Source of the DNA: Ruminococcus bromii
GTDB lineage: Bacteria > Bacillota > Clostridia > Lachnospirales > Lachnospiraceae
Assembly: GCA_963603285.1 (NCBI GenBank)
Contig: CAVCMG010000012.1
Location: forward strand, 12,791-76,790
Direction of reading: 5' to 3'
Length of the DNA stretch: 64,000 bases
Shown: positions 844 to 30,511 of the stretch, piece after piece
Layout: the number at the start of each line of letters is the position of its first letter
Position numbering within the stretch: position 1 is the first letter of the stretch
Translations under genes and position numbers: made by a program
The notes under the pieces: model-generated
The model's input: the letters and a program-made list of their open reading frames with translations, nothing else
What the model was told of the DNA's origin: nothing
Databases searched by the model: none

Positions 844-921
844 TCGCAGTTATGTAAGCAGACGTTTATCTGCTATCCAATTGTAAGTTTGTTCACCGAA
901 AGCTATATTTATCCTGTTTTT

Positions 922-967
922 AATAAAAAGGACCACCACTGAAGTTTTCTTTTACATGCTAAGGCAA
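922..967 (+). repeat. Copy 1 (most diverged) of a ~50-nt interspersed palindrome-containing element
   Basis: AATAAAAAGGACCACCACTGAAGTTTTCTTTTACATGCTAAGGCAA aligns with the copies at 8691, 9565(-) and 30155. It is followed by the hairpin at 973-1005. Confidence 0.6.
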
Positions 968-972
968 CAAAA

Positions 973-1005
973 GCGGAAGAAACGACAATATTTCATTTCT
1001 TCCGC
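973..1005 (-). terminator. Rho-independent terminator downstream of the MarR gene
   Basis: GCGGAAGAAA...TTTCTTCCGC stem directly after the stop of the minus-strand ORF at 1022. Confidence 0.6.
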
Positions 1006-1021
1006 CTTATATTTTACACAC

Positions 1022-2416: not shown

Positions 2417-2627
2417 AATCTACTTTACCTGCAAAAGTCAGGATATACAGAAAGTCAAAATCCAATAAAGCGTACTGAAATAGAGAAAGTCCAATCGGAG
2501 AGAAAAAATACCGATGTACCATATGTACATGGTCAGGTCTTCTGTGCTATAGTGGGACGAGAACACAGGTTCGACTGCGAAGAGAGTTGTACCTGCATTA
2601 GAAAATAGCAACAGGGAGAGTGTACAG

Positions 2628-3788
2628 ATGAAGAAAAAGAAGAAAACCGGGCTCTGGGTCGGCCTGCTTCTGGTGCTTGCCGTTGTCGGGATACTGCCGC
2701 TGCATGAACAGCAGTCGGATGTACCGGCGGGACAGGAGCATACTGTTTCGTATGCAGTAGAAAGCCAGACAGATACCAGCCCGTCAGAAGCAGCGAATGA
2801 AGCATTATCGAAGACTTCGCAAACTGTATCGGAGGCACAGAACACGGCATCAGATACAGCGCAGAGTATTGTTGCAGATACGCAGACAGAGACGACGACA
2901 GAAGTTCCATCTGCAGATGAAGCATCTATTCAGACATTAAGCAGTGCCGACATTCCTGCCTATACCGGCGAAGCGGCAGTTGTATTAAATGACAACAAAC
3001 CGTTTTTCACAGAGAAAGAGTATACGACAGAACCCTTTGAAAGCTACAGTGATCTGGACAGTCTGGGCCGCTGCGGTGTGGCCTATGCCAATGTCTGTGA
3101 GGAGATCATGCCCACAGAGGAACGGGGTGCGATCGGTATGATCAAACCGTCTGGCTGGCATACTGTCAAATACGACTGTGTAGATGGAAAATATCTCTAT
3201 AATCGCTGCCATCTGATCGGTTACCAGCTGAGTGGCGAGAATGCCAATGAAAAGAATCTGATCACCGGGACACGGTATTTAAATGTCATCGGTATGCTGC
3301 CCTACGAAGATCAGGTAGCGGATTATGTGCATGATACAGAGCATCATGTACTGTATCGTGTGACGCCCATTTTTACCGGTGACAATCTGGTGGCTGACGG
3401 TGTGGAGATTGAGGCTGCTTCTGTGGAAGATAAGGGAAAAACGCTGCAGTTTCATGTGTTCTGTTACAATGTCCAGCCGGGCGTGGTGATCGACTATGCA
3501 ACCGGTGACAGCCATCTGTCAGATGACGGCACAGCGGAGAACAGCGTAGCAGATAAAGGTAAGGCGGATAAAACAAAAGTCGCGGCTACGGAGACAACCG
3601 TCAGCAGTACATCCGCAGAAACTTCCGAAAAGATCACATATATTCTGAATAAAAATACCCACAAATTCCACTATCCATCATGTGCAAGTGTCGATGATAT
3701 CAAGCCAAGAAACCGTAAGGAATTTACAGGCACCCGGGAAGAAGTGATCGCACAGGGATATGATCCCTGTAAGCGTTGTAATCCATAA
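2628..3788 (+). CDS. Secreted DNA/RNA non-specific endonuclease (EndA/NucA-like) with a C-terminal Cys-rich metal-binding tail
   Basis: N-terminal signal/TM segment (KKKKKTGLWVGLLLVLAVVG). Nuclease core GRCGVAY...YNRCHLIGYQLSGENANEKNLITGTRYLN. C-terminal HKFHYPSC...DPCKRCNP motif. Confidence 0.75.
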   Translation: MKKKKKTGLWVGLLLVLAVVGILPLHEQQSDVPAGQEHTVSYAVESQTDTSPSEAANEALSKTSQTVSEAQNTASDTAQSIVADTQTETTTEVPSADEASIQTLSSADIPAYTGEAAVVLNDNKPFFTEKEYTTEPFESYSDLDSLGRCGVAYANVCEEIMPTEERGAIGMIKPSGWHTVKYDCVDGKYLYNRCHLIGYQLSGENANEKNLITGTRYLNVIGMLPYEDQVADYVHDTEHHVLYRVTPIFTGDNLVADGVEIEAASVEDKGKTLQFHVFCYNVQPGVVIDYATGDSHLSDDGTAENSVADKGKADKTKVAATETTVSSTSAETSEKITYILNKNTHKFHYPSCASVDDIKPRNRKEFTGTREEVIAQGYDPCKRCNP

Positions 3789-3926
3789 GAAAAAAGACAG
3801 AAAAGTGTTGAGAAAGTGTAAAGAAACGCCATGTTCTGAGTTGCAGTATTGAAAATGAAAAGAGAAGTCTGTAACATGTGAATAAAAGAACTGTGTAAAA
3901 AATACAGAACAAAAGGAGCCAGTCAA

Positions 3927-4961
3927 ATGAACGATCCATACGAACTTGCAAAAACAATATTGCAGTCTGCTGATGCGCTGGAAAGCGCAGAAACTGAAGC
4001 GTCTGCCGGTGGGGAGTTTACCAGCATTGACCTGTACGGAGCGGCTGTTCACGAAAAACAGGAAGCCAGCAAAGAAGCTGCCCGTTTCCATCTGGAAAAT
4101 GAGAGCGGAACGGGCGATATCACTCTGTATCAGGTTTTTCCCGGAATCGAGCTGGTCTACAATGATATGCACATGGCGTACTGTAACCGCCAGCAGCAGC
4201 CTGCCTCGGCAGTTATGGAGATCAATTACTGCAAAGAGGGCCGCAGTGAATGTCTGTTTGGAGAGAACCAGTACTGTTATATGGCTTCGGGCGATCTGTC
4301 GTTCTGCTCATTGCAGGAGCAGGCGCACCAGTCGGAGTTCCCGACGGCCCACTATCATGGCATCACAGTCACCATCGATTTTTCTGCGGTCACGGAGGAG
4401 ATGAAAAAGATCCTGACGTTGCTTTCTGTGGATCTGAATCGTATCAAAGCACTGGCACAGATGCAGGATTTTACCCTGATCCGGGCCAATCAGACCGTGG
4501 AGCATATTTTTTCCGAGCTGTACAGGGTGCCAGACAATATCCGGCATGGCTATATCCGTGTCAAGATGCTGGAGCTTCTGCTGGTACTGACGGAGCTTCA
4601 GCCGGAGCAGGAAAGAGATAAAAGGGCGCATTTCACCGGCGTACAGATCGAGACGGTCAAGCAGATCCACCATTTTCTTGTGGAACATTATGCAGAGCAT
4701 TATACGATCGATACGCTTGCAGAACAGTTTGATATGTCGCCAACGGTGATGAAAAAATGTTTCCGCGGCATTTACGGAGAATCTATCTATGCCTATATGA
4801 AACAGTATCGGCTGCAGGTGGCCGAGAGATTATTAAAGGAGAGCAGTCTGACGGTTGGTGAGATCGCAGCACAGATCGGCTATCTGAATCAGAATAAATT
4901 CACTTCGGCTTTCTGCGCTGCGTATGGTGTACCGCCGACGGAATACCGCAAAAAGAGCTGA
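3927..4961 (+). CDS. AraC-family transcriptional regulator
   Basis: C-terminal double HTH (YTIDTLAEQFDMSPTVMKKCFR...VGEIAAQIGYLNQNKFTSAF). AAGGAG RBS. Confidence 0.85.
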   Translation: MNDPYELAKTILQSADALESAETEASAGGEFTSIDLYGAAVHEKQEASKEAARFHLENESGTGDITLYQVFPGIELVYNDMHMAYCNRQQQPASAVMEINYCKEGRSECLFGENQYCYMASGDLSFCSLQEQAHQSEFPTAHYHGITVTIDFSAVTEEMKKILTLLSVDLNRIKALAQMQDFTLIRANQTVEHIFSELYRVPDNIRHGYIRVKMLELLLVLTELQPEQERDKRAHFTGVQIETVKQIHHFLVEHYAEHYTIDTLAEQFDMSPTVMKKCFRGIYGESIYAYMKQYRLQVAERLLKESSLTVGEIAAQIGYLNQNKFTSAFCAAYGVPPTEYRKKS

Positions 4962-5136: not shown

Positions 5137-6930
5137 ATGCAAAAAGATTCTGAAATTTCCAGAATGTTTCGCTATGCGGGAAACCGGCACTGGCTGACGA
5201 TCCTTGGCATGATCCTGGCCGGAATCAGTACGGTGCTGTCGATGATTCCCTTTGTGTGCATCTGGTTTGTTGTACAGGATATGGTCAAAGCGCTTGGTGC
5301 AGGAGATATCCGTCTGGCGTCTGGCAGTACAGCGTATGCCTGGTGGGCCGTCGGATTTTCCGTACTGAGTATTCTGCTGTATTTTGCAGCGCTGTGCTGC
5401 TCGCATCTGGCAGCTTTCCGTACGGCAACAAACATGAAAAAGGCAGCCATGCACCATATTGTCACACTGCCGCTGGGCTATTTCAGTCAGAACGCCAGCG
5501 GACGACTGCATAAGGTTGTCGATGACAATGCCGGACTGACGGAAAACTTTCTGGCACATCAGCTGCCGGATCTGACGGGCGCTGTGGTCATGCCGGTGGC
5601 TGTGATCGTTCTGATCTTTGTGTTTGACTGGCGGTTAGGGCTTTGCTGTCTTGTTCCGCTGGCACTCAGCGTCTATTTTCTGAAACAGATGATGGGCGGT
5701 GACAATGCACATTTTATGGAAGGCTATATGAAAGCGCTGGAGACGATGAACAAGGAGGCTGTGGAATATATCCGTGGTATCCCGGTCGTCAAGGTATTCC
5801 AGCAGACCGTATATTCCTTTAAAAACTTCCATGCAGCGATTGAAGAATATGAAAAATATGCTTCCGGCTATGCGCTGAAATGCCGTATACCGCTGACCGG
5901 CTTTAATGTGGCTTTAAACGGCACGTTTATCCTGCTGATCCCGGTGGCATGTCTGATCTTTGCAGGAGCCAGCGGACAGGCCGGTTACCAGAAACTGTTT
6001 CTGGATTTCCTATTTTACAGCCTGTTTACACCGGTATGTGCGACGATGATGAACCGCGTAATGTTTGCCAGCGAGCAGCTGATGGCGGCCAAAAGTGCTG
6101 TGAACCGGATCGAAGAGATCTTAAACGAGCAGCCGCTGGCAGAGGCAAAGGAGCCGAAACAGCCGGTGGATGCTTCTGTAGCGTTTGAATACGTTTCCTT
6201 TGCCTATGATGGGGCAAAAGACAAGGCACTGGATGATATTTCCTTTGCAATCCCGGCAGGAAAAACGGTGGCTCTTGTGGGTGCTTCCGGCAGCGGAAAA
6301 TCCACAGCGGCGAAGCTGATCCCGTGGTTTTACGATGTGACCGGCGGCCGTGTATTGCTTGGCGGTGTCGATGTACGGGATATGGATAAACGTACCCTGA
6401 TGCATCAGATCGCCTTTGTATTCCAGAATACAAAGCTGTTTAAGGATACTTTGCTTGAAAATATCCGTGCAGCCAGACCGGAGGCTTCCAGAGAAGAGGT
6501 GCTGGCGGCGGTACGGGCTGCCCAGTGTCAGGAGATCATCGACCGGCTGCCACAGGGGCTGGATACCATGGTAGGTGCCGGTGGTACATATCTGTCCGGT
6601 GGTGAAAACCAGAGAATCGCACTGGCAAGAGCTATTTTAAAGGATGCGCCGGTGATCGTGCTGGATGAGGCAACCGCTTTTGCGGATGCGGAGAACGAGC
6701 ACCAGATCCAGCTGGCTTTTGAAAAGCTGACACAGAATAAGACCGTGCTTATGATCGCACATCGTCTTTCCACGATCCAGAATGCAGATCTGATCCTGGT
6801 ATTTGATGAAGGTAAGATTATCGAAAGAGGTACACACGATGCATTGCTGGAAAAACATGGCAGATATGCGTCCATGTGGCAGGAATATCAGACGTCGATT
6901 GCATGGAAAGTCGGAAAGGAGGCAAAATAA
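5137..6930 (+). CDS. ABC exporter, fused permease/ATPase (heterodimer partner 1)
   Basis: Six-TM N-terminal half. Walker A GASGSGKST, signature LSGGENQR, Walker B VIVLDEAT. Start moved to the ATG at 5137 behind an AGGAGGA RBS. Confidence 0.9.
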   Translation: MQKDSEISRMFRYAGNRHWLTILGMILAGISTVLSMIPFVCIWFVVQDMVKALGAGDIRLASGSTAYAWWAVGFSVLSILLYFAALCCSHLAAFRTATNMKKAAMHHIVTLPLGYFSQNASGRLHKVVDDNAGLTENFLAHQLPDLTGAVVMPVAVIVLIFVFDWRLGLCCLVPLALSVYFLKQMMGGDNAHFMEGYMKALETMNKEAVEYIRGIPVVKVFQQTVYSFKNFHAAIEEYEKYASGYALKCRIPLTGFNVALNGTFILLIPVACLIFAGASGQAGYQKLFLDFLFYSLFTPVCATMMNRVMFASEQLMAAKSAVNRIEEILNEQPLAEAKEPKQPVDASVAFEYVSFAYDGAKDKALDDISFAIPAGKTVALVGASGSGKSTAAKLIPWFYDVTGGRVLLGGVDVRDMDKRTLMHQIAFVFQNTKLFKDTLLENIRAARPEASREEVLAAVRAAQCQEIIDRLPQGLDTMVGAGGTYLSGGENQRIALARAILKDAPVIVLDEATAFADAENEHQIQLAFEKLTQNKTVLMIAHRLSTIQNADLILVFDEGKIIERGTHDALLEKHGRYASMWQEYQTSIAWKVGKEAK

Positions 6931-8675
6931 TGCGAAAACTTTTTCAGAAGAAATATGCGCTGAGTGAACAGGGCGCAAAAGATCTCTGCAAAGGAATCCT
7001 CTATTCCATTCTGGCATATATCAGTCTGATGCTTCCGGTGGCACTGCTGGCCTGCGTATTGCAGGTATTTCTGGCCGGTGTGCTGGGTGAAAGTGGACAG
7101 CCGGTGTCTGCAGCATTGTATACAGAAATCGGAATCGTGATTCTTGTGATCATCTTTATTATGCATTATCTGCAGTATACGGTAACGTATATGGGCACCT
7201 ATGAAGAGAGTGAGCGTCGCAGGATCTCGCTGGCGGAAAAGTTAAGAACCATGCCGCTTCGGTTCTTTCAGGAGTATGATCTGTCGGACCTGACAGCTAC
7301 GATCATGGGAGACTGTGCCGGATTTGAACATGCCTTTTCCCATACTGTGCCGCAGTTCTGGGGCTCGATCATTTCCACGGCGATCGTGTGCGTGGTACTG
7401 CTCATCTACGACTGGCAGATGGGACTGGCACTTTTGTGGGTGGCTCCGGTGTCCTTTGCCATTGTACTGCTGTCCAGAAAGCTCCAGGAAAAGCTGGGCA
7501 GAAAGCATATGGCGGCAAGGCTTACGCTGGCCGAGGGTATCCAGGAGTGTCTGGAGACCGTGCAGGATATCAAAGCCTGCAGTCTGGAAGAAACGTATCT
7601 GAAAAAGCTGGATGCCAAGATGGATGCCGCGGAGAAAGCCCAGATTTCTTCGGAAATGCTGACGGCCAGCCTTGTAACGACCGGTCAGATGTTTCTGCGT
7701 CTGGGTCTGGCAACCGTTATTATCGTCGGAAATGTTCTGATGGTACACCAGCAGACAACGCTGTTTGCCTACATCCTGTTTCTTATCGCGGCTTCCCGGC
7801 TGTACGATCCGCTGTCCGGCGCCATGTCCAATATGGCAGAGCTGTTTTCTGTGGATCTGCAGGTTGGTCGTCTGAAAACGATCCAGAATTATAAGGAAGA
7901 GAAAAAGCAGACCACATATCAGACAGACGGCTATGATCTGACCTTTGACCATGTGGAATTTTCCTATGAGCCGGGTAAACCGGTGTTAAAGGATGTGTCC
8001 TTTACGGCAAAGCAGGGACAGGTAACGGCTCTGGTTGGTCCGTCAGGTGGCGGAAAGAGTACCGTGGCCAATCTGGCAGCCGGATTTTACGATGTAACGG
8101 GAGGAAAAATCACGCTGGGCGGTACGGATACACGGCCAATCGACGCCGTGGCCATGATGAAGGATTTCTCCATCGTGTTCCAGAATGTTGTCCTGTTCAA
8201 TAATACGGTCATGGAAAACTTACGTGTCGGCCGCAAAAATGCAACGGATGAAGAGGTGATCGCCGCAGCCCAAGCGGCCCATTGCCATGATTTTATCATG
8301 AAGCTGCCGCAGGGTTATGATACGGTGATTGGAGAGAACGGTTCCACACTGTCCGGTGGTGAGTGTCAGCGGCTTTCGATTGCCCGTGCGCTGTTAAAGG
8401 ATGCGCCGGTGATCATTCTGGATGAAGCAACAGCTTCGCTGGATGTGGACAATGAGACAGAGATCCAGGAGGCTATCTCACAGCTGATCAAGGGCAAGAC
8501 GGTTCTGATCATTGCGCACCGGATGCGTACCGTAGAGCATGCGGACAAGATCGTCGTTCTTGACGGCGGCGTTGTGGCAGAGAGTGGAACGAACGATGAG
8601 TTGTTGAAAAAGAATGGCCTGTATGCCCATCTGGTGGCTTTGCAGACCGCTTCTGCAGACTGGAAGCTGAACTAA
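6930..8675 (+). CDS. ABC exporter, fused permease/ATPase (heterodimer partner 2)
   Basis: Walker A GPSGGGKST, signature LSGGECQR, Walker B IILDEAT. The ATG overlaps the upstream stop (TAATG), which suggests translational coupling. Confidence 0.9.
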   Translation: MRKLFQKKYALSEQGAKDLCKGILYSILAYISLMLPVALLACVLQVFLAGVLGESGQPVSAALYTEIGIVILVIIFIMHYLQYTVTYMGTYEESERRRISLAEKLRTMPLRFFQEYDLSDLTATIMGDCAGFEHAFSHTVPQFWGSIISTAIVCVVLLIYDWQMGLALLWVAPVSFAIVLLSRKLQEKLGRKHMAARLTLAEGIQECLETVQDIKACSLEETYLKKLDAKMDAAEKAQISSEMLTASLVTTGQMFLRLGLATVIIVGNVLMVHQQTTLFAYILFLIAASRLYDPLSGAMSNMAELFSVDLQVGRLKTIQNYKEEKKQTTYQTDGYDLTFDHVEFSYEPGKPVLKDVSFTAKQGQVTALVGPSGGGKSTVANLAAGFYDVTGGKITLGGTDTRPIDAVAMMKDFSIVFQNVVLFNNTVMENLRVGRKNATDEEVIAAAQAAHCHDFIMKLPQGYDTVIGENGSTLSGGECQRLSIARALLKDAPVIILDEATASLDVDNETEIQEAISQLIKGKTVLIIAHRMRTVEHADKIVVLDGGVVAESGTNDELLKKNGLYAHLVALQTASADWKLN

Positions 8676-8690
8676 GTGGGAAAATGAACC

Positions 8691-8740
8691 CAATAAAAGG
8701 AACCTCCACTGGAGCTTTCTTTTATATGCTAAGGCAAAAA
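8691..8740 (+). repeat. Copy 2 of the ~50-nt interspersed element
   Basis: CAATAAAAGGAACCTCCACTGGAGCTTTCTTTTATATGCTAAGGCAAAAA is near-identical to the copy at 30155-30208. Confidence 0.75.
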
Positions 8741-8747
8741 GAAAAAA

Positions 8748-8782
8748 GGAGCAGATCTGGTAAAAGGATCTGCGTCCTTTTT
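8748..8782. terminator. Bidirectional Rho-independent terminator
   Basis: GGAGCAGATC...GATCTGCGTCC stem with an A-run upstream and a T-run downstream. Confidence 0.7.
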
Positions 8783-8795
8783 GCGCAGCATACCC

Positions 8796-8824
8796 TTGCA
8801 TTTTCTGTGAACAGACAGTATAAT
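8796..8824 (+). promoter_or_regulatory. Sigma-A-type promoter for the BMC gene pair
   Basis: TTGCAT, 17 nt, TATAAT. Confidence 0.6.
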
Positions 8825-8872
8825 AGCAATAGAATTGTGCAATCCAGAATTGTATACATACAGGAGGATCTT

Positions 8873-9169
8873 ATGAGCAAGTATAATGGTGCAGCCGTAG
8901 GCGCATTCGAAGCAGACAGCTACCTTGTGTGCTGTGTAGCCATCGATGCCGCCGTCAAAGCAGCAGATGTCAAAGTAGAGGGAATCGAGAGAAACCGTTT
9001 AAAAAGCGGTGCCTGTGTAAAACTCCGTGGCCGTATCTCCGATATCAAAGCAGCTATGGAAGCCGCTGAAGAGGCTGCAAAGCGTCTGTCTCCGATCACC
9101 AAGTCCGTGATCATTCCGTCACCGACACCGGATACAGAGATCATGCTTGAGATGACCATCAATAAATAA
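8873..9169 (+). CDS. BMC-domain (microcompartment shell, BMC-H-like) protein
   Basis: AVGAFEA...AIDAAVKAADVKV...LRGRISDIKAAMEAAEEAA...VIIPSPTPDTE aligns by eye with PduA/EutM-type BMC domains. AGGAGGA RBS before the ATG at 8873. The 161-aa version in the ORF track is an artefactual extension. Confidence 0.8.
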   Translation: MSKYNGAAVGAFEADSYLVCCVAIDAAVKAADVKVEGIERNRLKSGACVKLRGRISDIKAAMEAAEEAAKRLSPITKSVIIPSPTPDTEIMLEMTINK

Positions 9170-9564: not shown

Positions 9565-9608
9565 GACTTAGCATATAAAAGGAAGCTCCAGTTGAGATTT
9601 TTTGTTAA
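9565..9608 (-). repeat. Copy 3 of the ~50-nt interspersed element (reverse orientation)
   Basis: The reverse complement reads GTTAACAAAAAATCTCAACTGGAGCTTCCTTTTATATGCTAAGTC. It lies between the terminator and the ClC gene start. Confidence 0.65.
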
Positions 9609-9652
9609 CGAAAGAGGGAAAACGGCAGACCGACTGCCGAAAAGAGAGAAAA

Positions 9653-12406: not shown

Positions 12407-12490
12407 GCCGGTGTGTTGGAATTGGCAGACGAGACGGACTCAAAATCCGTTGGTGGTAACACCGTGCGGGTTCGACCCCCGCCACCGGCA
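12407..12490 (+). tRNA. tRNA-Leu (anticodon CAA)
   Basis: Acceptor GCCGGTG/CACCGGC. Anticodon stem-loop ACGGA-CTCAAAA-TCCGT. Long variable arm. T-arm GCGGG-TTCGACC-CCCGC. Discriminator A; CCA is not encoded. Confidence 0.9.
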
Positions 12491-25552: not shown

Positions 25553-26043
25553 GACATACGAAAGAAAACTTGCCCGGCAGCCGTCGTTGGTGGTATTATA
25601 CATACATAGTGTTTGCAAGCCTGCTTTTTCTTCTGGGAATGCCGGCGCGGGTGTCGGCATCTGCGACGGGGGCAAAAAGCCATGTTGCTCTTGTGATCGA
25701 TGATCAGGAGCCGTCCTCAGCTTCTTCTAAAGCCCGGACAGACCAGCAGGCAGAGGAAAATGCCGAACAGGCATCCGGTACACAGGAAGCGCAGACGGAG
25801 TCCATAACGACAAGCCGTATGCTGCAACATGTGTTTGTTGTGGTATTTGGCGGTGTTCTGTGTGTAAGCCTTGGTATTGGTGTACTGATCTATCATATAC
25901 GTCGGGACAAGGTCGATGACGCTTATGTGGCAAATATCCGGCGATGCTACGGCGAATTGTCCATTTACGAAGAACCGCGGGAGTGTAACGAGAGGGAGAA
26001 CTATGGAGGAAGAACTGTTTTTATCCGGGAAAAACAGGCTTGA
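25543..26043 (+). CDS. Hypothetical two-TM membrane protein with an acidic/Ser-rich extracytoplasmic linker
   Basis: Two hydrophobic segments (WWYYTYIVFASLLFLLG; VFVVVFGGVLCVSLGIGVLIY). No motif I recognise. Confidence 0.45.
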   Translation: MSMRHTKENLPGSRRWWYYTYIVFASLLFLLGMPARVSASATGAKSHVALVIDDQEPSSASSKARTDQQAEENAEQASGTQEAQTESITTSRMLQHVFVVVFGGVLCVSLGIGVLIYHIRRDKVDDAYVANIRRCYGELSIYEEPRECNERENYGGRTVFIREKQA

Positions 26044-28753
26044 AGGTCTGGAAATACTGATGCGTCACAGCAAAATGTACATGTTTACATACTGTAATGT
26101 TACAGATACGATAGAGGTCTATGACGCCAGACTGCAAAAGATTGAAACGATTGCTGGCGTATTATACGATACAGTCAGAAAAAACATGGTGCATCCGGAG
26201 GATTACTGGAAGCTGCAGGAGTTTCTGGAAGGCCGTCTGCAGGGACCGATCGAGATCCGTATTCAGAAAAAGACCGGTGCAGAATATCAGAAGCTTTCCA
26301 TGGATGCGCTTGGGTTCCATGAGGATGGACTTCGGATCGGTTCGATAAAAAATGTAACGCAGGAGCGCAAAAGAGAGGAGATCTGGCAGGATCAGGCGCA
26401 GCGGGATTCCCTCACGGGTCTTTACAATAACCAGACCGGCAAGATCCTGATCAGTGAATATCTGGAAAAAAAGTCACCGTATGCCTCCTGCGGTATGATG
26501 GTGATCGATGTTGATTATTTTAAGAATATCAATGATAATTACGGCCACCTTTTCGGGGATGAAGTGCTGACGAAGTTTGCGGCATTTTTACGCACCTTTT
26601 TTGCGGAGAAGGATATCTTTGTCCGGGCCGGCGGTGATGAATTTGTCGTGCTGTTAAAGGAGATCAGCCACCAGAGCCTGCTGAAAAAGTCCATGCAGTT
26701 TGTCCACATGGTACGAAAAATCCAGTTTTCACAGCAGAGTGTGTCTATCAGCTGCAGTGTGGGCGTCTGTTTCCTGCCGGAAAATGTGGCCGGTTATACC
26801 TACGAGCAGCTGTTTGAAAACGCGGACTGGGCGCTGTATCAGGCAAAGATCAACGGCAGGAACCGGTATGTATTCTGTGACAATCTGAAGCGCTTTGAGT
26901 TGGAGGCCCAGAGTACGGAGGCGGAGAGTACAATCGACACCCGCTATCTCAGAAATGATGTTGTAGCGACGGCTTTCGAGATCTTTGAGAAGCAGAACAG
27001 CTTTGATACGGCACTGGAACAGCTGATGCAGGTCATCGGTATCCGTTTCCAGCTGGACCGTATTACCGTTGTCCAGACCGATATCCAGAAACAGAGCGTA
27101 GGCAGTCAGTACCAGTGGCTGCGAAAAAATCTGGAAGACCAGCCGGTGCTGGAAAGTCCCTCCGGTTTTCAGAAAGAAGATTTCCAGACGCTGTTTCGCA
27201 GTTATGACGAATACGGAACGACTGTCTTACAGTATGACAATATGGGTATGTATTCCCCGGCGGGAAAACAGCTTCTGATGCAGGGCGGCGCAAAGACTGT
27301 GCTGTATGCCGCCATGTACTGCGAAGGTAAATATATGGGAGCAATCTCCTATGTAGTCTGCACCAGCAAGCGATACTGGTCAAAGCAGGACAGAAAACAG
27401 CTGGGTGAGCTGACCAAGATCGTTTCCGCCCATATGGCGAAACGGCAGGCCATCAACGCCGGTGGCGGCGCCAGATTTATGTCGCTGGATCTGGATGCCC
27501 TGACCGGTCTGCTGACCTATGCCAGATTCCGGGAAGAGGCAGAGCGCATTATTGTCAGTGGTACTGGGGGCGACTATCTGATGATGTATACCGACTTCTG
27601 TGGTTTTAAATATTTTAATCAGAAATATGGTTATGCAGCAGGAGATATCCTCTTAAAGGAATTTGCCAATTATATCATGGAACGTATGCCGGATGGTGCG
27701 GAAGGGTATTTTGCCCGGATCGCGGCAGATCAGTTTCTACTTTTTATGCCGTATAAAGAGACAGAGAAGATCAGCGCGGTCGTTGCAGAGATCAATCAGA
27801 AATTTCAGCGCCGTATAGAAGTACGTTTCCCAGGAGCCGGTATCAAGGTGCGCACCGGTATCTACAGGATCAGCGAGAGCTGCGTAGGGGCTTCCATGGC
27901 TGTGGATGCTGCCAACTACGCCAGAAAGCAGGTACAGGAAAACAGCGAACAGACCGTAGTATTTTATAATGAAAAGATCCGGCAGCAGCAGGAACAGGAA
28001 AATGAGATTATCGGCAACATGGATAACGCCATGCAAAAAGGCGAATTCCGCGTTTTTTATCAGCCGAAGGTTTCGCTGACGGACTATCATATCGTCGGTG
28101 CAGAAGCACTGATCCGCTGGATCCGTCCGGATGGCACCGTCCTGACCCCGGCGGCATTCGTTCCATTGTACGAGAAGAATGGCCATATCGTAGAGCTGGA
28201 TTATTATGTGCTGGAAAAGACTGCCCAGATGCTGCAGCATTTGCAGAAAAAAGGCGTATCTATCGTGCCGGTATCAGTAAATATTTCTGCCCTGCACGCC
28301 GCAGACGATACAACAGTTGACAAATATCTGGCCATTCTGCAGAAATACGATCTCTCTCCAACTCTGTTTCAGGTAGAGATCACCGAATCTGCCACTGTAT
28401 TCAATTACCGCAATGTCCGCCAGATGTTTGCCCGTTTCCGTCAGGCCGGTTTCACCACCGCCCTCGACGACTTCGGCGTCGGCTTCTCCATCATGAACCT
28501 GATCGCCGATATCCCCCTGGATGTCATCAAGCTGGACCGCATCTTCATCGACAAATGCGAGCACAGCCAGAGAGGAGACTTCTTCCTCCACCAGATCATC
28601 CACCTGCTCAAAGGCCTCGGCTTCACCGTCCTCTGCGAAGGCGTAGAACGCAAAGACCAGGCCGAACTCCTCGGCCAGGCCGGCTGTGACCTCATGCAGG
28701 GCAACCTGTTCTCCGCCCCCGTCCCCGGCGAGGACTTCGCGGAGCTATTATAA
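26003..28753 (+). CDS. Multidomain c-di-GMP protein: sensor + GGDEF (intact) + GAF-like + GGDEF (degenerate) + EAL
   Basis: RAGGDEFVVLL in the first cyclase domain. RIAADQFLLFM in the second (degenerate). EAL motifs EALIRW, DDFGVGFS, KLDRIF. Start set to the ATG at 26003 behind an AGGGAG RBS. Confidence 0.85.
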   Translation: MEEELFLSGKNRLEGLEILMRHSKMYMFTYCNVTDTIEVYDARLQKIETIAGVLYDTVRKNMVHPEDYWKLQEFLEGRLQGPIEIRIQKKTGAEYQKLSMDALGFHEDGLRIGSIKNVTQERKREEIWQDQAQRDSLTGLYNNQTGKILISEYLEKKSPYASCGMMVIDVDYFKNINDNYGHLFGDEVLTKFAAFLRTFFAEKDIFVRAGGDEFVVLLKEISHQSLLKKSMQFVHMVRKIQFSQQSVSISCSVGVCFLPENVAGYTYEQLFENADWALYQAKINGRNRYVFCDNLKRFELEAQSTEAESTIDTRYLRNDVVATAFEIFEKQNSFDTALEQLMQVIGIRFQLDRITVVQTDIQKQSVGSQYQWLRKNLEDQPVLESPSGFQKEDFQTLFRSYDEYGTTVLQYDNMGMYSPAGKQLLMQGGAKTVLYAAMYCEGKYMGAISYVVCTSKRYWSKQDRKQLGELTKIVSAHMAKRQAINAGGGARFMSLDLDALTGLLTYARFREEAERIIVSGTGGDYLMMYTDFCGFKYFNQKYGYAAGDILLKEFANYIMERMPDGAEGYFARIAADQFLLFMPYKETEKISAVVAEINQKFQRRIEVRFPGAGIKVRTGIYRISESCVGASMAVDAANYARKQVQENSEQTVVFYNEKIRQQQEQENEIIGNMDNAMQKGEFRVFYQPKVSLTDYHIVGAEALIRWIRPDGTVLTPAAFVPLYEKNGHIVELDYYVLEKTAQMLQHLQKKGVSIVPVSVNISALHAADDTTVDKYLAILQKYDLSPTLFQVEITESATVFNYRNVRQMFARFRQAGFTTALDDFGVGFSIMNLIADIPLDVIKLDRIFIDKCEHSQRGDFFLHQIIHLLKGLGFTVLCEGVERKDQAELLGQAGCDLMQGNLFSAPVPGEDFAELL

Positions 28754-28827
28754 AGTCTGGACAGGATAGAATATGCACAGCAGGCAGTTAAGGGTTAGCT
28801 GTGTATGCATCAATAACATAACTTGAA

Positions 28828-29040
28828 GAAAAAGGGAGATAGCTGCGTCGGGGGTAGTGGTTCTCTTCTCAAACGATTCAAAGTGCGTTTTTAGCTTCGA
28901 CAAGATCCAGTGCCTACGTAATCTTACGCGCGAGCCCGCTCTAGCGAGCGCGTTAGATGCAGTTGGCACTTAGCTTGGCGAAGCGTTGCACTTGTTTGAG
29001 AAGAGAACCACTACCCCCGACGCAGCTATCTCCTTTTTTC
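28828..29040. repeat. ~213-nt long hairpin / inverted repeat with 47-bp near-perfect arms
   Basis: Arm 28828-28874 is the reverse complement of 28994-29040 with a single G:T position. The interior pairs imperfectly (AAGTGC, CAAG, AGTGCC, ACGCGC/GCGCGT blocks). Confidence 0.85.
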
Positions 29041-29056
29041 TTAACACAACCTACAT

Positions 29057-30001
29057 TTATTTATTATTAGAAGCTGACCGCGCATAAATATTCGCCAGCA
29101 CAGCCCCCGAAACATTATGCCATACACTGAACACAGCCCCCGGAATCGTAGCCAGTGGATACTGTGCAAAATGCGTAGCCGCCAGAGACGTAGCCAGCCC
29201 AGAATTCTGCATACCAACCTCGATCGAAATCGCACGGCACTTCGTAGAATCCAGCTTCAAAACCTTACCGATACAGTAGCCCAGCGTATATCCCAGCACA
29301 TTATGCAGAATAACAACAGCCAGGATCAGAAGACCAGAAGTCATGATCTTCGCAGAGTTTGCAGAAACAACAGCAGCCACGATCGCCACGATCGCCGTAG
29401 TAGAGATCAGCGGCAGCACCTCCACAGCCTTCTCCGTAAATTTGGAGAAAAAATGATTCACAATAAATCCAAGAACAATCGGAACAATCACAACCTTTAC
29501 GATCGAAAGGAACATGCTCAACATATTGACACTGACCTTCTCACCCGCATACAGATACGTCAGAAACGGTGTCAGAAACGGCGCCAGCACCGTAGAAACA
29601 GCCGTCATACCAACAGACAGCGCCACATCACCCTTGGACAGATACGTCATAACATTCGAAGATGTACCGCCCGGGCAGGTACCCACAAGGATAACACCAA
29701 TAGCCAGTTCCGGCGGCAGCTGGAACACCTTTGTCAGTCCGAAGGCCAGAAGTGGCATAACTGTAAACTGTGAAACACAGCCGATCACAACATCCTTAGG
29801 ACGGCTGAAAACAACCTTGAAATCATGCGGCTTTAACGTAAGTCCCATACCAAACATAACGATGCCAAGCAGCGTATTGACATAGCTCGTCTTGATAAAG
29901 CTGACCGTATTCGGTGCAAATAAAGCAAGCGCAGCCATGGCGATAACGATAACAGCCATGTACTTGCTGACAAAATTCGTGATCTTCTTTAAAACTTCCA
30001 T
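29057..30001 (-). CDS. BASS/SBF-family (bile acid:Na+ symporter family) transporter
   Basis: GMGLTLKPHDF, GTCPGGTSSNVMTY and EVGMQNSGLA family motifs. Start at the ATG at 30001 behind an AAGGAGAAG RBS. Confidence 0.85.
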   Translation of the reverse strand: MEVLKKITNFVSKYMAVIVIAMAALALFAPNTVSFIKTSYVNTLLGIVMFGMGLTLKPHDFKVVFSRPKDVVIGCVSQFTVMPLLAFGLTKVFQLPPELAIGVILVGTCPGGTSSNVMTYLSKGDVALSVGMTAVSTVLAPFLTPFLTYLYAGEKVSVNMLSMFLSIVKVVIVPIVLGFIVNHFFSKFTEKAVEVLPLISTTAIVAIVAAVVSANSAKIMTSGLLILAVVILHNVLGYTLGYCIGKVLKLDSTKCRAISIEVGMQNSGLATSLAATHFAQYPLATIPGAVFSVWHNVSGAVLANIYARSASNNK

Positions 30002-30154
30002 TTCTTTCTTCTCCTTTGAGTTGTCTGGGAAAACCAGTAATCTAACCATCCAGTGCTTCGTAAATCATTTTCCCTCTGTCCGCAAAAGGCTCGGATCAGG
30101 CAGCGCGACAGCCTGCAGAATCTGTCGTAAACGCCCGGCCTCTCTGTTAAGAGA

Positions 30155-30208
30155 AATAATAAAAGAAACCTCCACTGGAGCTTTCTTTTATATGCTAAGG
30201 CAAAAAAA
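30155..30208 (+). repeat. Copy 4 of the ~50-nt interspersed element, inside the 5' UTR of the BASS gene (antisense to it)
   Basis: AATAATAAAAGAAACCTCCACTGGAGCTTTCTTTTATATGCTAAGGCAAAAAAA. It directly abuts the T-box terminator hairpin at 30209-30237. Confidence 0.75.
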
Positions 30209-30476
30209 GCCTCTGTCTCCATACAAGAGACAAAGGCCAAACCTCTGCGGTACCACTCTTCTTGCTGTAAAAAATACAGCCACTCACATCCACATCTGAC
30301 AATGGGAAACAGGATAACGACTGTTACTCGTCCGGACTTACGCGGTAAATCTTTCAGTCCGAAAGCTCAGAGGTGATTTTCACTGAAGATTCAACACTGC
30401 CTCTCACCAAAAGCGGCAGCTCTCTGTGGAATCCCCTTCAGGTACTCTTCCTCGTCATTGCGAAACATCTGAAGTT
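30200..30476 (-). promoter_or_regulatory. T-box riboswitch leader, probable Ile (AUC) specifier
   Basis: On the minus strand: GA/K-turn and AGUA (UGACGAGGAAGAGUA), AGAGAG box, distal GGUGAGA loop, specifier loop UGAAA-AUC-A, Stem III hairpin, T-box AGAGUGGUACCGCAGAGG, then terminator GCCUUUGUCUC...GAGACAGAGGC + U7. Confidence 0.85.
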
Positions 30477-30482
30477 GCCTGT

Positions 30483-30511
30483 ATAATAGTCCTCAAAAAT
30501 TTGTTTGTCAA
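30483..30511 (-). promoter_or_regulatory. Sigma-A-type promoter driving the T-box leader
   Basis: Minus strand: TTGACA, 17 nt, TATTAT. Confidence 0.65.

Follow-up and report, generated by a model that had tools for sequence, protein, structure and literature searches.

What does a transporter of the BASS/SBF family carry when its gene lies behind a leader RNA that responds to uncharged tRNA? The question is raised by the minus strand of a 64,000-nt stretch of Ruminococcus bromii DNA (contig CAVCMG010000012.1; hereafter the window), in which a sequence-only reading had placed a T-box leader with a probable isoleucine specifier ahead of a single BASS gene. The gene is widespread and highly conserved in gut Firmicutes and is now annotated "bile acid:sodium symporter"; the evidence assembled here points to isoleucine supply instead. 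We found that the RNA at this locus is a canonical transcription-attenuating T-box riboswitch behind a sigma-70 promoter and that its specifier is AUC, which reads isoleucine. Together with comparisons of related loci, this makes it quite likely that an isoleucine-specific T-box induces a BASS importer that serves isoleucine supply. For the cargo itself we propose, more tentatively, the substrate of IlvD, 2,3-dihydroxy-3-methylvalerate.

An isoleucine T-box ahead of a BASS gene

The whole window was scanned with the Rfam T-box family model (RF00230, gathering score 93), and both promoter and terminator scans were added. The sole cis-regulatory Rfam match anywhere in the window is to this model: it extends from 30467 to 30223 on the minus strand, covers model positions 1-219 of 219 without truncation and scores 123.9 bits (E 5.1e-27), above the gathering score, in agreement with the complete minus-strand leader first read from the letters. 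The TTGACA-17-TATTAT promoter of that reading was also recovered, at 30511..30483 on the minus strand. It stands 16 nt 5' of the first T-box model position and has an identical sequence in the orthologous locus L001, from a Lachnospiraceae metagenome-assembled genome whose transporter is the closest relative (95% amino-acid identity). The elements of the locus are as follows.

TTGACA 30511-30506, 17-nt spacer, TATTAT 30488-30483, minus strand: sigma-70-type promoter, 11 of 12 consensus matches
30223..30467, minus strand: full T-box leader (Stems I, II, IIA/B, III and antiterminator), from the RF00230 match
30365..30461, minus strand: Stem I, with K-turn, specifier loop (AGUA ... GAA-A-AUC-A), AGAGAG bulge and GGUGAGA distal loop, from the cmscan alignment
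Within Stem I, minus strand: K-turn/GA motif GC-AAUGAC-GAGG, from sequence reading and the cmscan alignment, as are the next four
30446-30443, minus strand: AGUA
30425-30420, minus strand: AGAGAG
30408-30402, minus strand: distal loop GGUGAGA
30381-30379, minus strand: GAA
30375..30377, minus strand: specifier AUC (isoleucine), then A30374, in the cmscan register
30259-30245, minus strand: T-box sequence AGAGUGGUACCGCAG, from sequence reading; antiterminator bulge in the cmscan alignment
30202..30238, minus strand: intrinsic terminator, 13-bp stem 30238-30208 and U7 30208-30202, from the terminator scan and folding
30158..30206, no strand assigned: copy 4 of a 49-nt intergenic repeat, immediately 3' of the T-box terminator, with a hairpin of about -15 kcal/mol, from a repeat search
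30011..30017, minus strand: ribosome-binding site AAAGGAG, 9 nt before the ATG, from sequence reading; identical in L001
29057..30001, minus strand: gene for a BASS/SBF-family Na+-coupled transporter of 314 aa, by PF01758

The K-turn and AGUA, the AGAGAG and GGUGAGA elements, Stem III, the T-box sequence and the U7 terminator all lie where the earlier reading had put them. In the cmscan alignment, the lower stem of Stem I is formed by GAGG 30453-30450 and CCUC 30373-30370, and compensatory changes are seen in 16 of the 18 predicted Stem I pairs in a 22-sequence alignment of diverse leaders (alignment A4). Within the T-box sequence, UGGU 30255-30252 is the pairing site for the tRNA 3' end NCCA, its final U corresponding to the discriminator base A73, which we take to be the discriminator of tRNA-Ile. 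By the rule given in TBDB, UGGU in the bulge implies A73. The terminator (-25.8 kcal/mol, compared with -9.8 kcal/mol for the antiterminator) and the antiterminator are mutually exclusive folds, because the antiterminator 3' arm, UUUGUCUCU, is common to the terminator 5' arm, as is classical for T-boxes. The model score, the full set of Stem I motifs and a UGGN bulge in an antiterminator that competes with an intrinsic terminator together identify the RNA as a T-box.

The specifier codon was taken as the three bases preceding the last unpaired base of the specifier loop, whose 3' side in the cmscan register reads GAA-A-AUC-A, followed by the lower stem CCUC. Orthologous loci were fetched around relatives of the transporter (80 genome and 80 metagenome loci; 172 loci in all). 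AUC occupies the same position in 75 of 75 machine-parsed leaders from the genome and metagenome sets and in every one of the remainder that were read by hand. All of the approximately 90 T-boxes found 5' of orthologous BASS genes, in Lachnospiraceae, Faecalibacterium, Ruthenibacterium, Clostridium and Tissierellia, carry this codon, and it is present in the leaders of L166, L168, L169 and L170 too. In alignment A4, ATC is invariant at columns 91-93, the base before it is A, U, G or C, the base after it is A, C or G, and the lower stem covaries between GC and AU. The alternative register that the sequence-only reading had kept open, AAU for asparagine, is excluded because the base 5' of AUC varies among orthologues: under NAU, orthologues of a single gene would answer to Asn, Tyr, Asp or His, and covariation fixes the register of the lower stem. 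The isoleucine codon that this reading favored thus holds both in the cmscan register and in the suggested comparison with related BASS loci. Its proposal to settle the codon by a covariance model and by folding Stem I succeeded in part: the covariance model and covariation gave AUC, whereas minimum free energy folding of Stem I alone did not recover the T-box fold (z = +0.6). We do not count this failure against the T-box, since it is expected for a motif-rich structure that is stabilized by tRNA.

Downstream of the leader, the BASS gene is monocistronic, which bears out the view that it is the sole regulated gene. The next gene is a convergent GGDEF/EAL gene (25916-28753, plus strand), and [FeFe]-hydrogenase subunit genes diverge upstream of the locus. 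The product scores 177.2 bits against PF01758 (SBF; gathering score 24.3) and 298.4 bits against the 'bass' subfamily model TIGR00841, slightly under the cutoff of 326.3. An open reading frame start at ATG 30049 was ruled out by the ribosome-binding site and by alignment to residue 1 of the bacterial BASS protein ASBT_NM; the start is ATG 30001.

As an RNA, the leader has the full architecture of the canonical isoleucine T-boxes that precede ileS, ilv operons and brnQ in Firmicutes, from the K-turn to a UGGN bulge set against a terminator and U-run, with an S-turn in the specifier loop, an AG bulge, a distal loop and Stems II, IIA/B and III. Its specifier, AUC, is the usual one for isoleucine and is used by the brnQ T-box of Clostridium sp. 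BJN0001 (locus L168) as well. The difference lies in the regulated gene, which here is a BASS/SBF transporter. The T-box transporter families listed in Wels 2008 are ABC, APC, DAACS, LIVCS, MFS, NhaC and NSS; neither the supplement of that study nor the T-box regulon tables of the Sun 2013 supplements contain a BASS entry. We did not find the pairing of a T-box with a bile-acid:sodium symporter in the literature searched, which does not span all catalogues, and the pair may already be listed somewhere without comment. The RNA is an ordinary member of a thoroughly known riboswitch family, and the new aspect is BASS as a member of its regulon. T-box specifiers are among the few clues to a transporter's substrate that can be read from sequence only.

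Age of the pairing and linkage to ilvD

Of the 80 genome loci, 24 have an Rfam T-box directly 5' of BASS, and four further genome loci carry the TGGTACCGC motif in leaders that are truncated or below threshold. This motif occurs in the BASS-linked leaders of Lachnospiraceae, Faecalibacterium and most Clostridium; those of Tissierellia and Sedimentibacter read TGGTACCAC, and that of L168 reads TGGTATCGC. In a neighbor-joining tree of the 80 genome-locus BASS proteins, the T-box-linked genes form an almost monophyletic clade of Lachnospiraceae, Faecalibacterium and Ruthenibacterium, three members of which have no leader (L004, L006 and L010). Rumen Lachnospiraceae make up a second T-box group, and two Clostridium loci add further cases of an isoleucine T-box with BASS. 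No T-boxes were found in the Treponema, Coriobacteriia and Bacteroidales-type BASS clades. Since the T-box-linked genes are almost monophyletic across Lachnospiraceae, Faecalibacterium, Ruthenibacterium and Clostridium, the association is ancient and not accidental. Homologues of 82-95% identity abound in gut assemblies, many of them from Lachnospiraceae, and the gene is present in Faecalibacterium prausnitzii too.

Gene order supplies a further connection to the isoleucine pathway. The recurrent partners of BASS in the 172 loci are the isoleucine T-box, ilvD, a GntR/FCD regulator and DUF3089. At least 9 separately sampled loci of diverged lineages (GC content 32-63%) have ilvD directly 5' of BASS. 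In the Tissierellia locus L063, a T-box with AUC is followed by ilvD and then, after 13 nt, by BASS, and L161/L162, L166 and L170 (Sedimentibacter sp. MB31-C6) have this T-box(AUC)-ilvD-BASS operon as well. The ilvD of L063 scores 793 bits against TIGR00110, and the copies that were scanned in full (L063, L163 and L164) reach 791-795 bits with an equivalog cutoff of 618; the other ilvD calls rest on Pfam ILVD_EDD domains, as in L104, where the gene is cut by the contig end (438 bits). L104 (GC 32%) and L141 (GC 63%) are two unbiased metagenome matches with ilvD directly 5' of BASS.

The pair also occurs without a T-box. In these loci, ilvD-BASS faces a divergent LldR-like GntR/FCD regulator, and the palindrome GAGGTAnTACCTC is conserved in the intergenic region. 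The GntR/FCD and ilvD-BASS modules lie at the following positions.

L163 (S. hydroxybenzoicus): 5314-8960
L164/L165 (Aminipila): 5306-8960
L167: 2306-5960
L171: 3329-6960

In this module, the same two genes are under a protein regulator instead of a T-box. Since protein sequences diverge by 32-38% among the ilvD-BASS loci and their GC contents run from 32 to 63%, the adjacency is evidently maintained by selection. Their gene tables contain no ilvB, ilvC or ilvE. A set of one enzyme, a transporter and a regulator of their own usually marks an importer plus first enzyme, which argues that the cargo is the substrate of IlvD. With the pairing conserved, or ilvD adjacent, in many related genomes, the cargo of the transporter is probably an isoleucine precursor and not a bile acid.

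Gene order likewise bears on the cargoes that had been proposed at the outset, isoleucine itself or one of its 2-oxo acid precursors. A non-classical isoleucine permease would fit the observation that the cognate amino acid is the cargo of many T-box-regulated transporters (Wels 2008), and the Treponema orthologue follows a polar-amino-acid-type ABC permease/ATPase pair. However, no characterized BASS member is known to carry a zwitterionic amino acid, the recognition site for a carboxylate and 2-hydroxyl between helix N-termini is retained in the window protein, and the linkage to ilvD would go unexplained if the cargo were finished isoleucine. In Clostridium sp. BJN0001, moreover, brnQ and BASS stand side by side, each under an isoleucine T-box with AUC, and BASS is thus not simply a second isoleucine permease. 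BrnQ/LIVCS and BcaP-type branched-chain amino acid permeases under isoleucine T-boxes share with BASS the AUC input and the purpose of restoring isoleucine supply, but they have an unrelated fold and probably another cargo. We consider import of isoleucine itself improbable.

Several observations on these loci stand apart from the argument. In Clostridium sp. BJN0001 (L168 2831-5948 and 6650-7730), brnQ and then BASS are controlled by two consecutive isoleucine T-boxes, and a CRISPR array with RF01316 repeats begins about 700 nt past BASS. In L141, the open reading frame directly 5' of BASS (2429-3952) carries an RNase_T exonuclease domain at its N-terminus, fused to the C-terminal two-thirds of a 5'-truncated ilvD; either ilvD has been truncated or rearranged there, or the assembly is chimeric. 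The clade adjoining the T-box BASS clade always has a gene for a DUF3089 (alpha/beta-hydrolase-like) protein just 5' on the same strand (L013, L028, L029, L031, L035-L037, L040, L041, L043, L044 and L058, with BASS at about 3001), which suggests a different, esterase-coupled role for these nearly identical transporters; in L012, a GDSL lipase gene precedes BASS. Treponema-type loci (L048, L056 and L156) have BASS behind the polar-amino-acid-type ABC permease and ATPase genes on the same strand, an arrangement that may hint at an amino-acid-related role outside Firmicutes. In L047, a Clostridiales-1 RNA (RF01699, 110 bits; 887-1017, minus strand) lies directly 5' of, and divergent from, the BASS T-box. 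Two 421-aa homologues, P0001 and P0002, score 701 bits, above full-length matches of 95% identity, despite 82% identity over 81% coverage, which suggests an internal partial duplication or fusion. A cluster of short "upstream" open reading frames in Faecalibacterium loci is spurious, as it overlaps the T-box, and an "antisense" cluster is an artefact.

Binding site and candidate cargoes

Residues 1-313 of the window protein can be aligned over their full length with residues 1-312 of ASBT_NM (3zux/8oyf; E 1e-98), at about 55% identity, in keeping with the 10-TM core/panel fold with crossover helices of the family. We take the Na1 and Na2 residues of ASBT_NM, after Hu et al. 2011, to be Q77, S114, N115, S128, T132, E260, V261, M263 and Q264. 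The window protein and all 44 aligned homologues share every one of these residues, and coupling of the carrier to Na+ is presumed; for S114 and N115, a role as Na ligands is given in PMC10645422. In the same study, ASBT_NM bound pantoate (2,4-dihydroxy-3,3-dimethylbutanoate), and ketopantoate gave no stabilization in the binding assay. The carboxylate of pantoate rests on the backbone N-H of T112 and A113, its 2-hydroxyl contacts N265 and G267, and its further hydroxyl contacts H294 and N295 (PMC10645422). The contacts T112, N265, G267, H294, N295 and I203 are identical in the window protein (whose pocket comprises T113, S114, N266, G268, H295, N296 and I204), and A113S and I47V are conservative replacements. 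By its residues, then, the site would be of the 2-hydroxy-acid (pantoate) type, and the window protein presumably shares with ASBT_NM an Na+-coupled elevator mechanism and the recognition of carboxylate and 2-hydroxyl.

This site speaks to the 2-oxo acids, 2-oxo-3-methylvalerate or 2-oxobutanoate, which the sequence-only reading had named as possible cargoes. Their import would agree with the conserved isoleucine T-box; some BASS members carry 2-keto acids, and PanS is reported to carry ketopantoate. The plant plastid carriers BASS5/BAT5, BASS2 and BASS6 (for 2-keto acids, pyruvate and glycolate) belong to the same family, and their cargoes are small 2-oxo or 2-hydroxy carboxylates from which amino-acid-derived pathways are supplied. 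However, where ASBT_NM has T112 and N265, the plant keto-acid carriers show Gln and Ser (PMC10645422), whereas the window protein keeps Thr113 and Asn266, and a ketone in place of the 2-hydroxyl appears to disrupt binding to ASBT_NM. The operon partner is also ilvD, which acts before the keto acid, and never ilvE, nor the ilvB and ilvC that would be expected for 2-oxobutanoate. A 2-oxo acid cargo is therefore unlikely in our view, though it retains some weight. The original prediction of isoleucine or precursor import is strengthened by the comparative data, but the adjacency of ilvD and the retained Thr113 and Asn266 shift its chemistry: a dihydroxy acid is more likely than isoleucine or a 2-oxo acid.

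The same likeness to ASBT_NM might instead indicate a PanS-like transporter of pantoate or ketopantoate for coenzyme A synthesis, with the isoleucine T-box as an indirect metabolic link. The PanS model (NCBIfam NF047939, ketopantoate/pantoate/pantothenate transporter) is the best NCBIfam match of the window protein, at 304.6 bits (the BASS protein of L063 scores 296.1), and pantoate is held by the same residues in the closest structure. Yet the score is well under the equivalog cutoff of 400, and we conclude on this ground that the protein is not PanS. Induction specific to isoleucine would be illogical for pantoate, which derives from the valine precursor 2-oxoisovalerate, and yet all of the approximately 90 leaders are isoleucine-specific. 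No pan genes occur among the recurrent BASS neighbors in the 172 loci, whereas ilvD recurs. Thus, although ASBT_NM and the PanS of Salmonella resemble the window protein (at about 55% identity to ASBT_NM, with the checked Na1/Na2 positions and most pantoate contacts conserved), the latter stands under tRNA-Ile control, its relatives are linked to ilvD and not to pantothenate or coenzyme A, and its predicted cargo is a dihydroxy acid of the branched-chain amino acid pathway. We regard a pantoate role as highly improbable.

A site of the 2-hydroxy-acid type would also suit another isoleucine-related carboxylate. Both 2-hydroxy-3-methylvalerate, which could be oxidized to the keto acid, and 2-methylbutyrate, which could enter by reductive carboxylation through a ferredoxin-dependent 2-oxoacid oxidoreductase, are abundant in gut and rumen, and the latter route is known in rumen anaerobes. 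In L010, a divergent gene for an IorA-like 2-oxoacid:ferredoxin oxidoreductase lies beside BASS. This is a single case, at a locus without a T-box, and no linkage to a hydroxyacid dehydrogenase or an oxidoreductase recurs. Nor would either acid explain the linkage to ilvD, and 2-methylbutyrate has no 2-hydroxyl for Asn265 and Gly267 to contact. An acid of this kind seems doubtful as the cargo.

Import of the IlvD substrate accommodates both the regulation and the gene order, and the following model can be drawn. When isoleucine runs short, uncharged tRNA-Ile(GAU) would accumulate and its anticodon would pair with AUC, as in the established T-box mechanism; its free NCCA end would pair with UGGU and stabilize the weak antiterminator, and RNA polymerase would read through the 13-bp terminator and U7 into the single downstream gene. 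The invariant AUC of the approximately 90 orthologous leaders lends indirect support to such induction by tRNA-Ile. The product is predicted, from the conserved ASBT_NM Na1/Na2 and crossover-helix residues, to be a 10-transmembrane, Na+-coupled, elevator-type BASS carrier that takes up a small carboxylate, which regulation and gene context suggest is an isoleucine precursor. The cargo would most plausibly be (2R,3R)-2,3-dihydroxy-3-methylvalerate, perhaps also 2,3-dihydroxyisovalerate. IlvD would dehydrate the dihydroxy acid to 2-oxo-3-methylvalerate, which IlvE would transaminate to isoleucine, so that the cell could salvage pathway intermediates leaked by its neighbors. Extended to the BASS subfamily, the model describes a dedicated importer of these acids that forms a two-gene salvage module with IlvD under tRNA-Ile or GntR/FCD control, a proposal that we advance with the same reserve as the cargo in the window, each standing somewhat short of an even chance.

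Several points weigh against this proposal. The substrate is drawn from context only. In the clade of the window itself, the BASS gene is monocistronic and does not stand beside ilvD, and the 64-kb window contains no ilv gene, ilvD included. Where ilvD does lie under an isoleucine T-box with BASS, the two may be joined as members of one regulon and not as enzyme and substrate carrier. No valine or leucine specifier was ever seen, although IlvD serves both valine and isoleucine synthesis. No clade differs in the pocket residues, not even one that is DUF3089-linked or T-box-less; because the same residues occur in clades with no isoleucine link, the pocket alone does not specify a ligand of the isoleucine pathway. 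In the window, the hairpin and U-rich tract of a repeat between the T-box and the start codon could also dampen read-through.

We found no described transporter for a dihydroxy-acid intermediate of the branched-chain amino acid pathway in the literature searched, and a comparative-genomics study of Roseburia gave no information about the uptake of dihydroxy acids. The isoleucine T-box and the ilvD linkage give a concrete, testable hypothesis for the uptake of such intermediates, with a bearing on "bile acid transporter" annotations in the microbiome. They would also provide a candidate natural ligand for the ASBT_NM/ASBT_Yf family, which is structurally well studied and whose physiological substrates are still debated. 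If the proposal is true, gut and sediment anaerobes routinely cross-feed intermediates of this pathway, and not only finished amino acids.

The spacer and the 49-nt repeat

The sequence-only reading had remarked on some 200 nt, including repeat copy 4, between the terminator and the start codon. The spacer from the end of the U-run (30202) to the ATG (30001) is indeed 200 nt long, and its unusual length is largely due to an inserted repeat that is missing in L001. The 49-nt repeat has four copies in the window (922-970, 8692-8740, 9574-9622 in reverse, and 30158-30206). Its consensus consists of the hairpin AAAAGRAAsCTCCACTGGAGsTTTCTTTT and a conserved tail, ATATGCTAAGGCAAAAA; the hairpin has a stability of -15 to -18 kcal/mol and U-rich flanks on both strands. 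Each copy is accompanied, after an A-run, by a second, non-homologous GC-rich hairpin, which on the opposite strand reads as a hairpin and T-run, and the copies at 922 and 8692 directly follow the stop codons of plus-strand genes. These features suggest either a cassette that terminates transcription in both directions or a small mobile element of intergenic regions.

None of the 172 fetched loci contains the repeat, not even L001, the orthologue at 95% identity, and a place for it in the BASS regulatory unit was rejected on this ground; copy 4 is probably not part of the switch. The L001 spacer is similar apart from the missing repeat, more distant orthologues have unrelated spacers, and between 87 and 307 nt separate the T-box motif from the start codon in the orthologues. 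From this comparison, we conclude that the long spacer is largely a lineage-specific insertion, of which roughly 40-50 nt are repeat and which might serve as an additional, weak terminator. A second riboswitch or leader in the spacer was also rejected: no Rfam family matches at E <= 1 over 28700-30230, and the spacer can be aligned only with that of L001. The fold z-score of -3.85 in the spacer region is due to the T-box terminator and the repeat hairpin.

Two further observations concern the surroundings of the locus. The convergent BASS and GGDEF/EAL genes are 300 nt apart (28754-29056), and no intrinsic terminator could be recognized in this gap for either of them. A single tRNA gene, tRNA-Leu(CAA) at 12407-12490 on the plus strand, lies in the window and is unrelated to the T-box.

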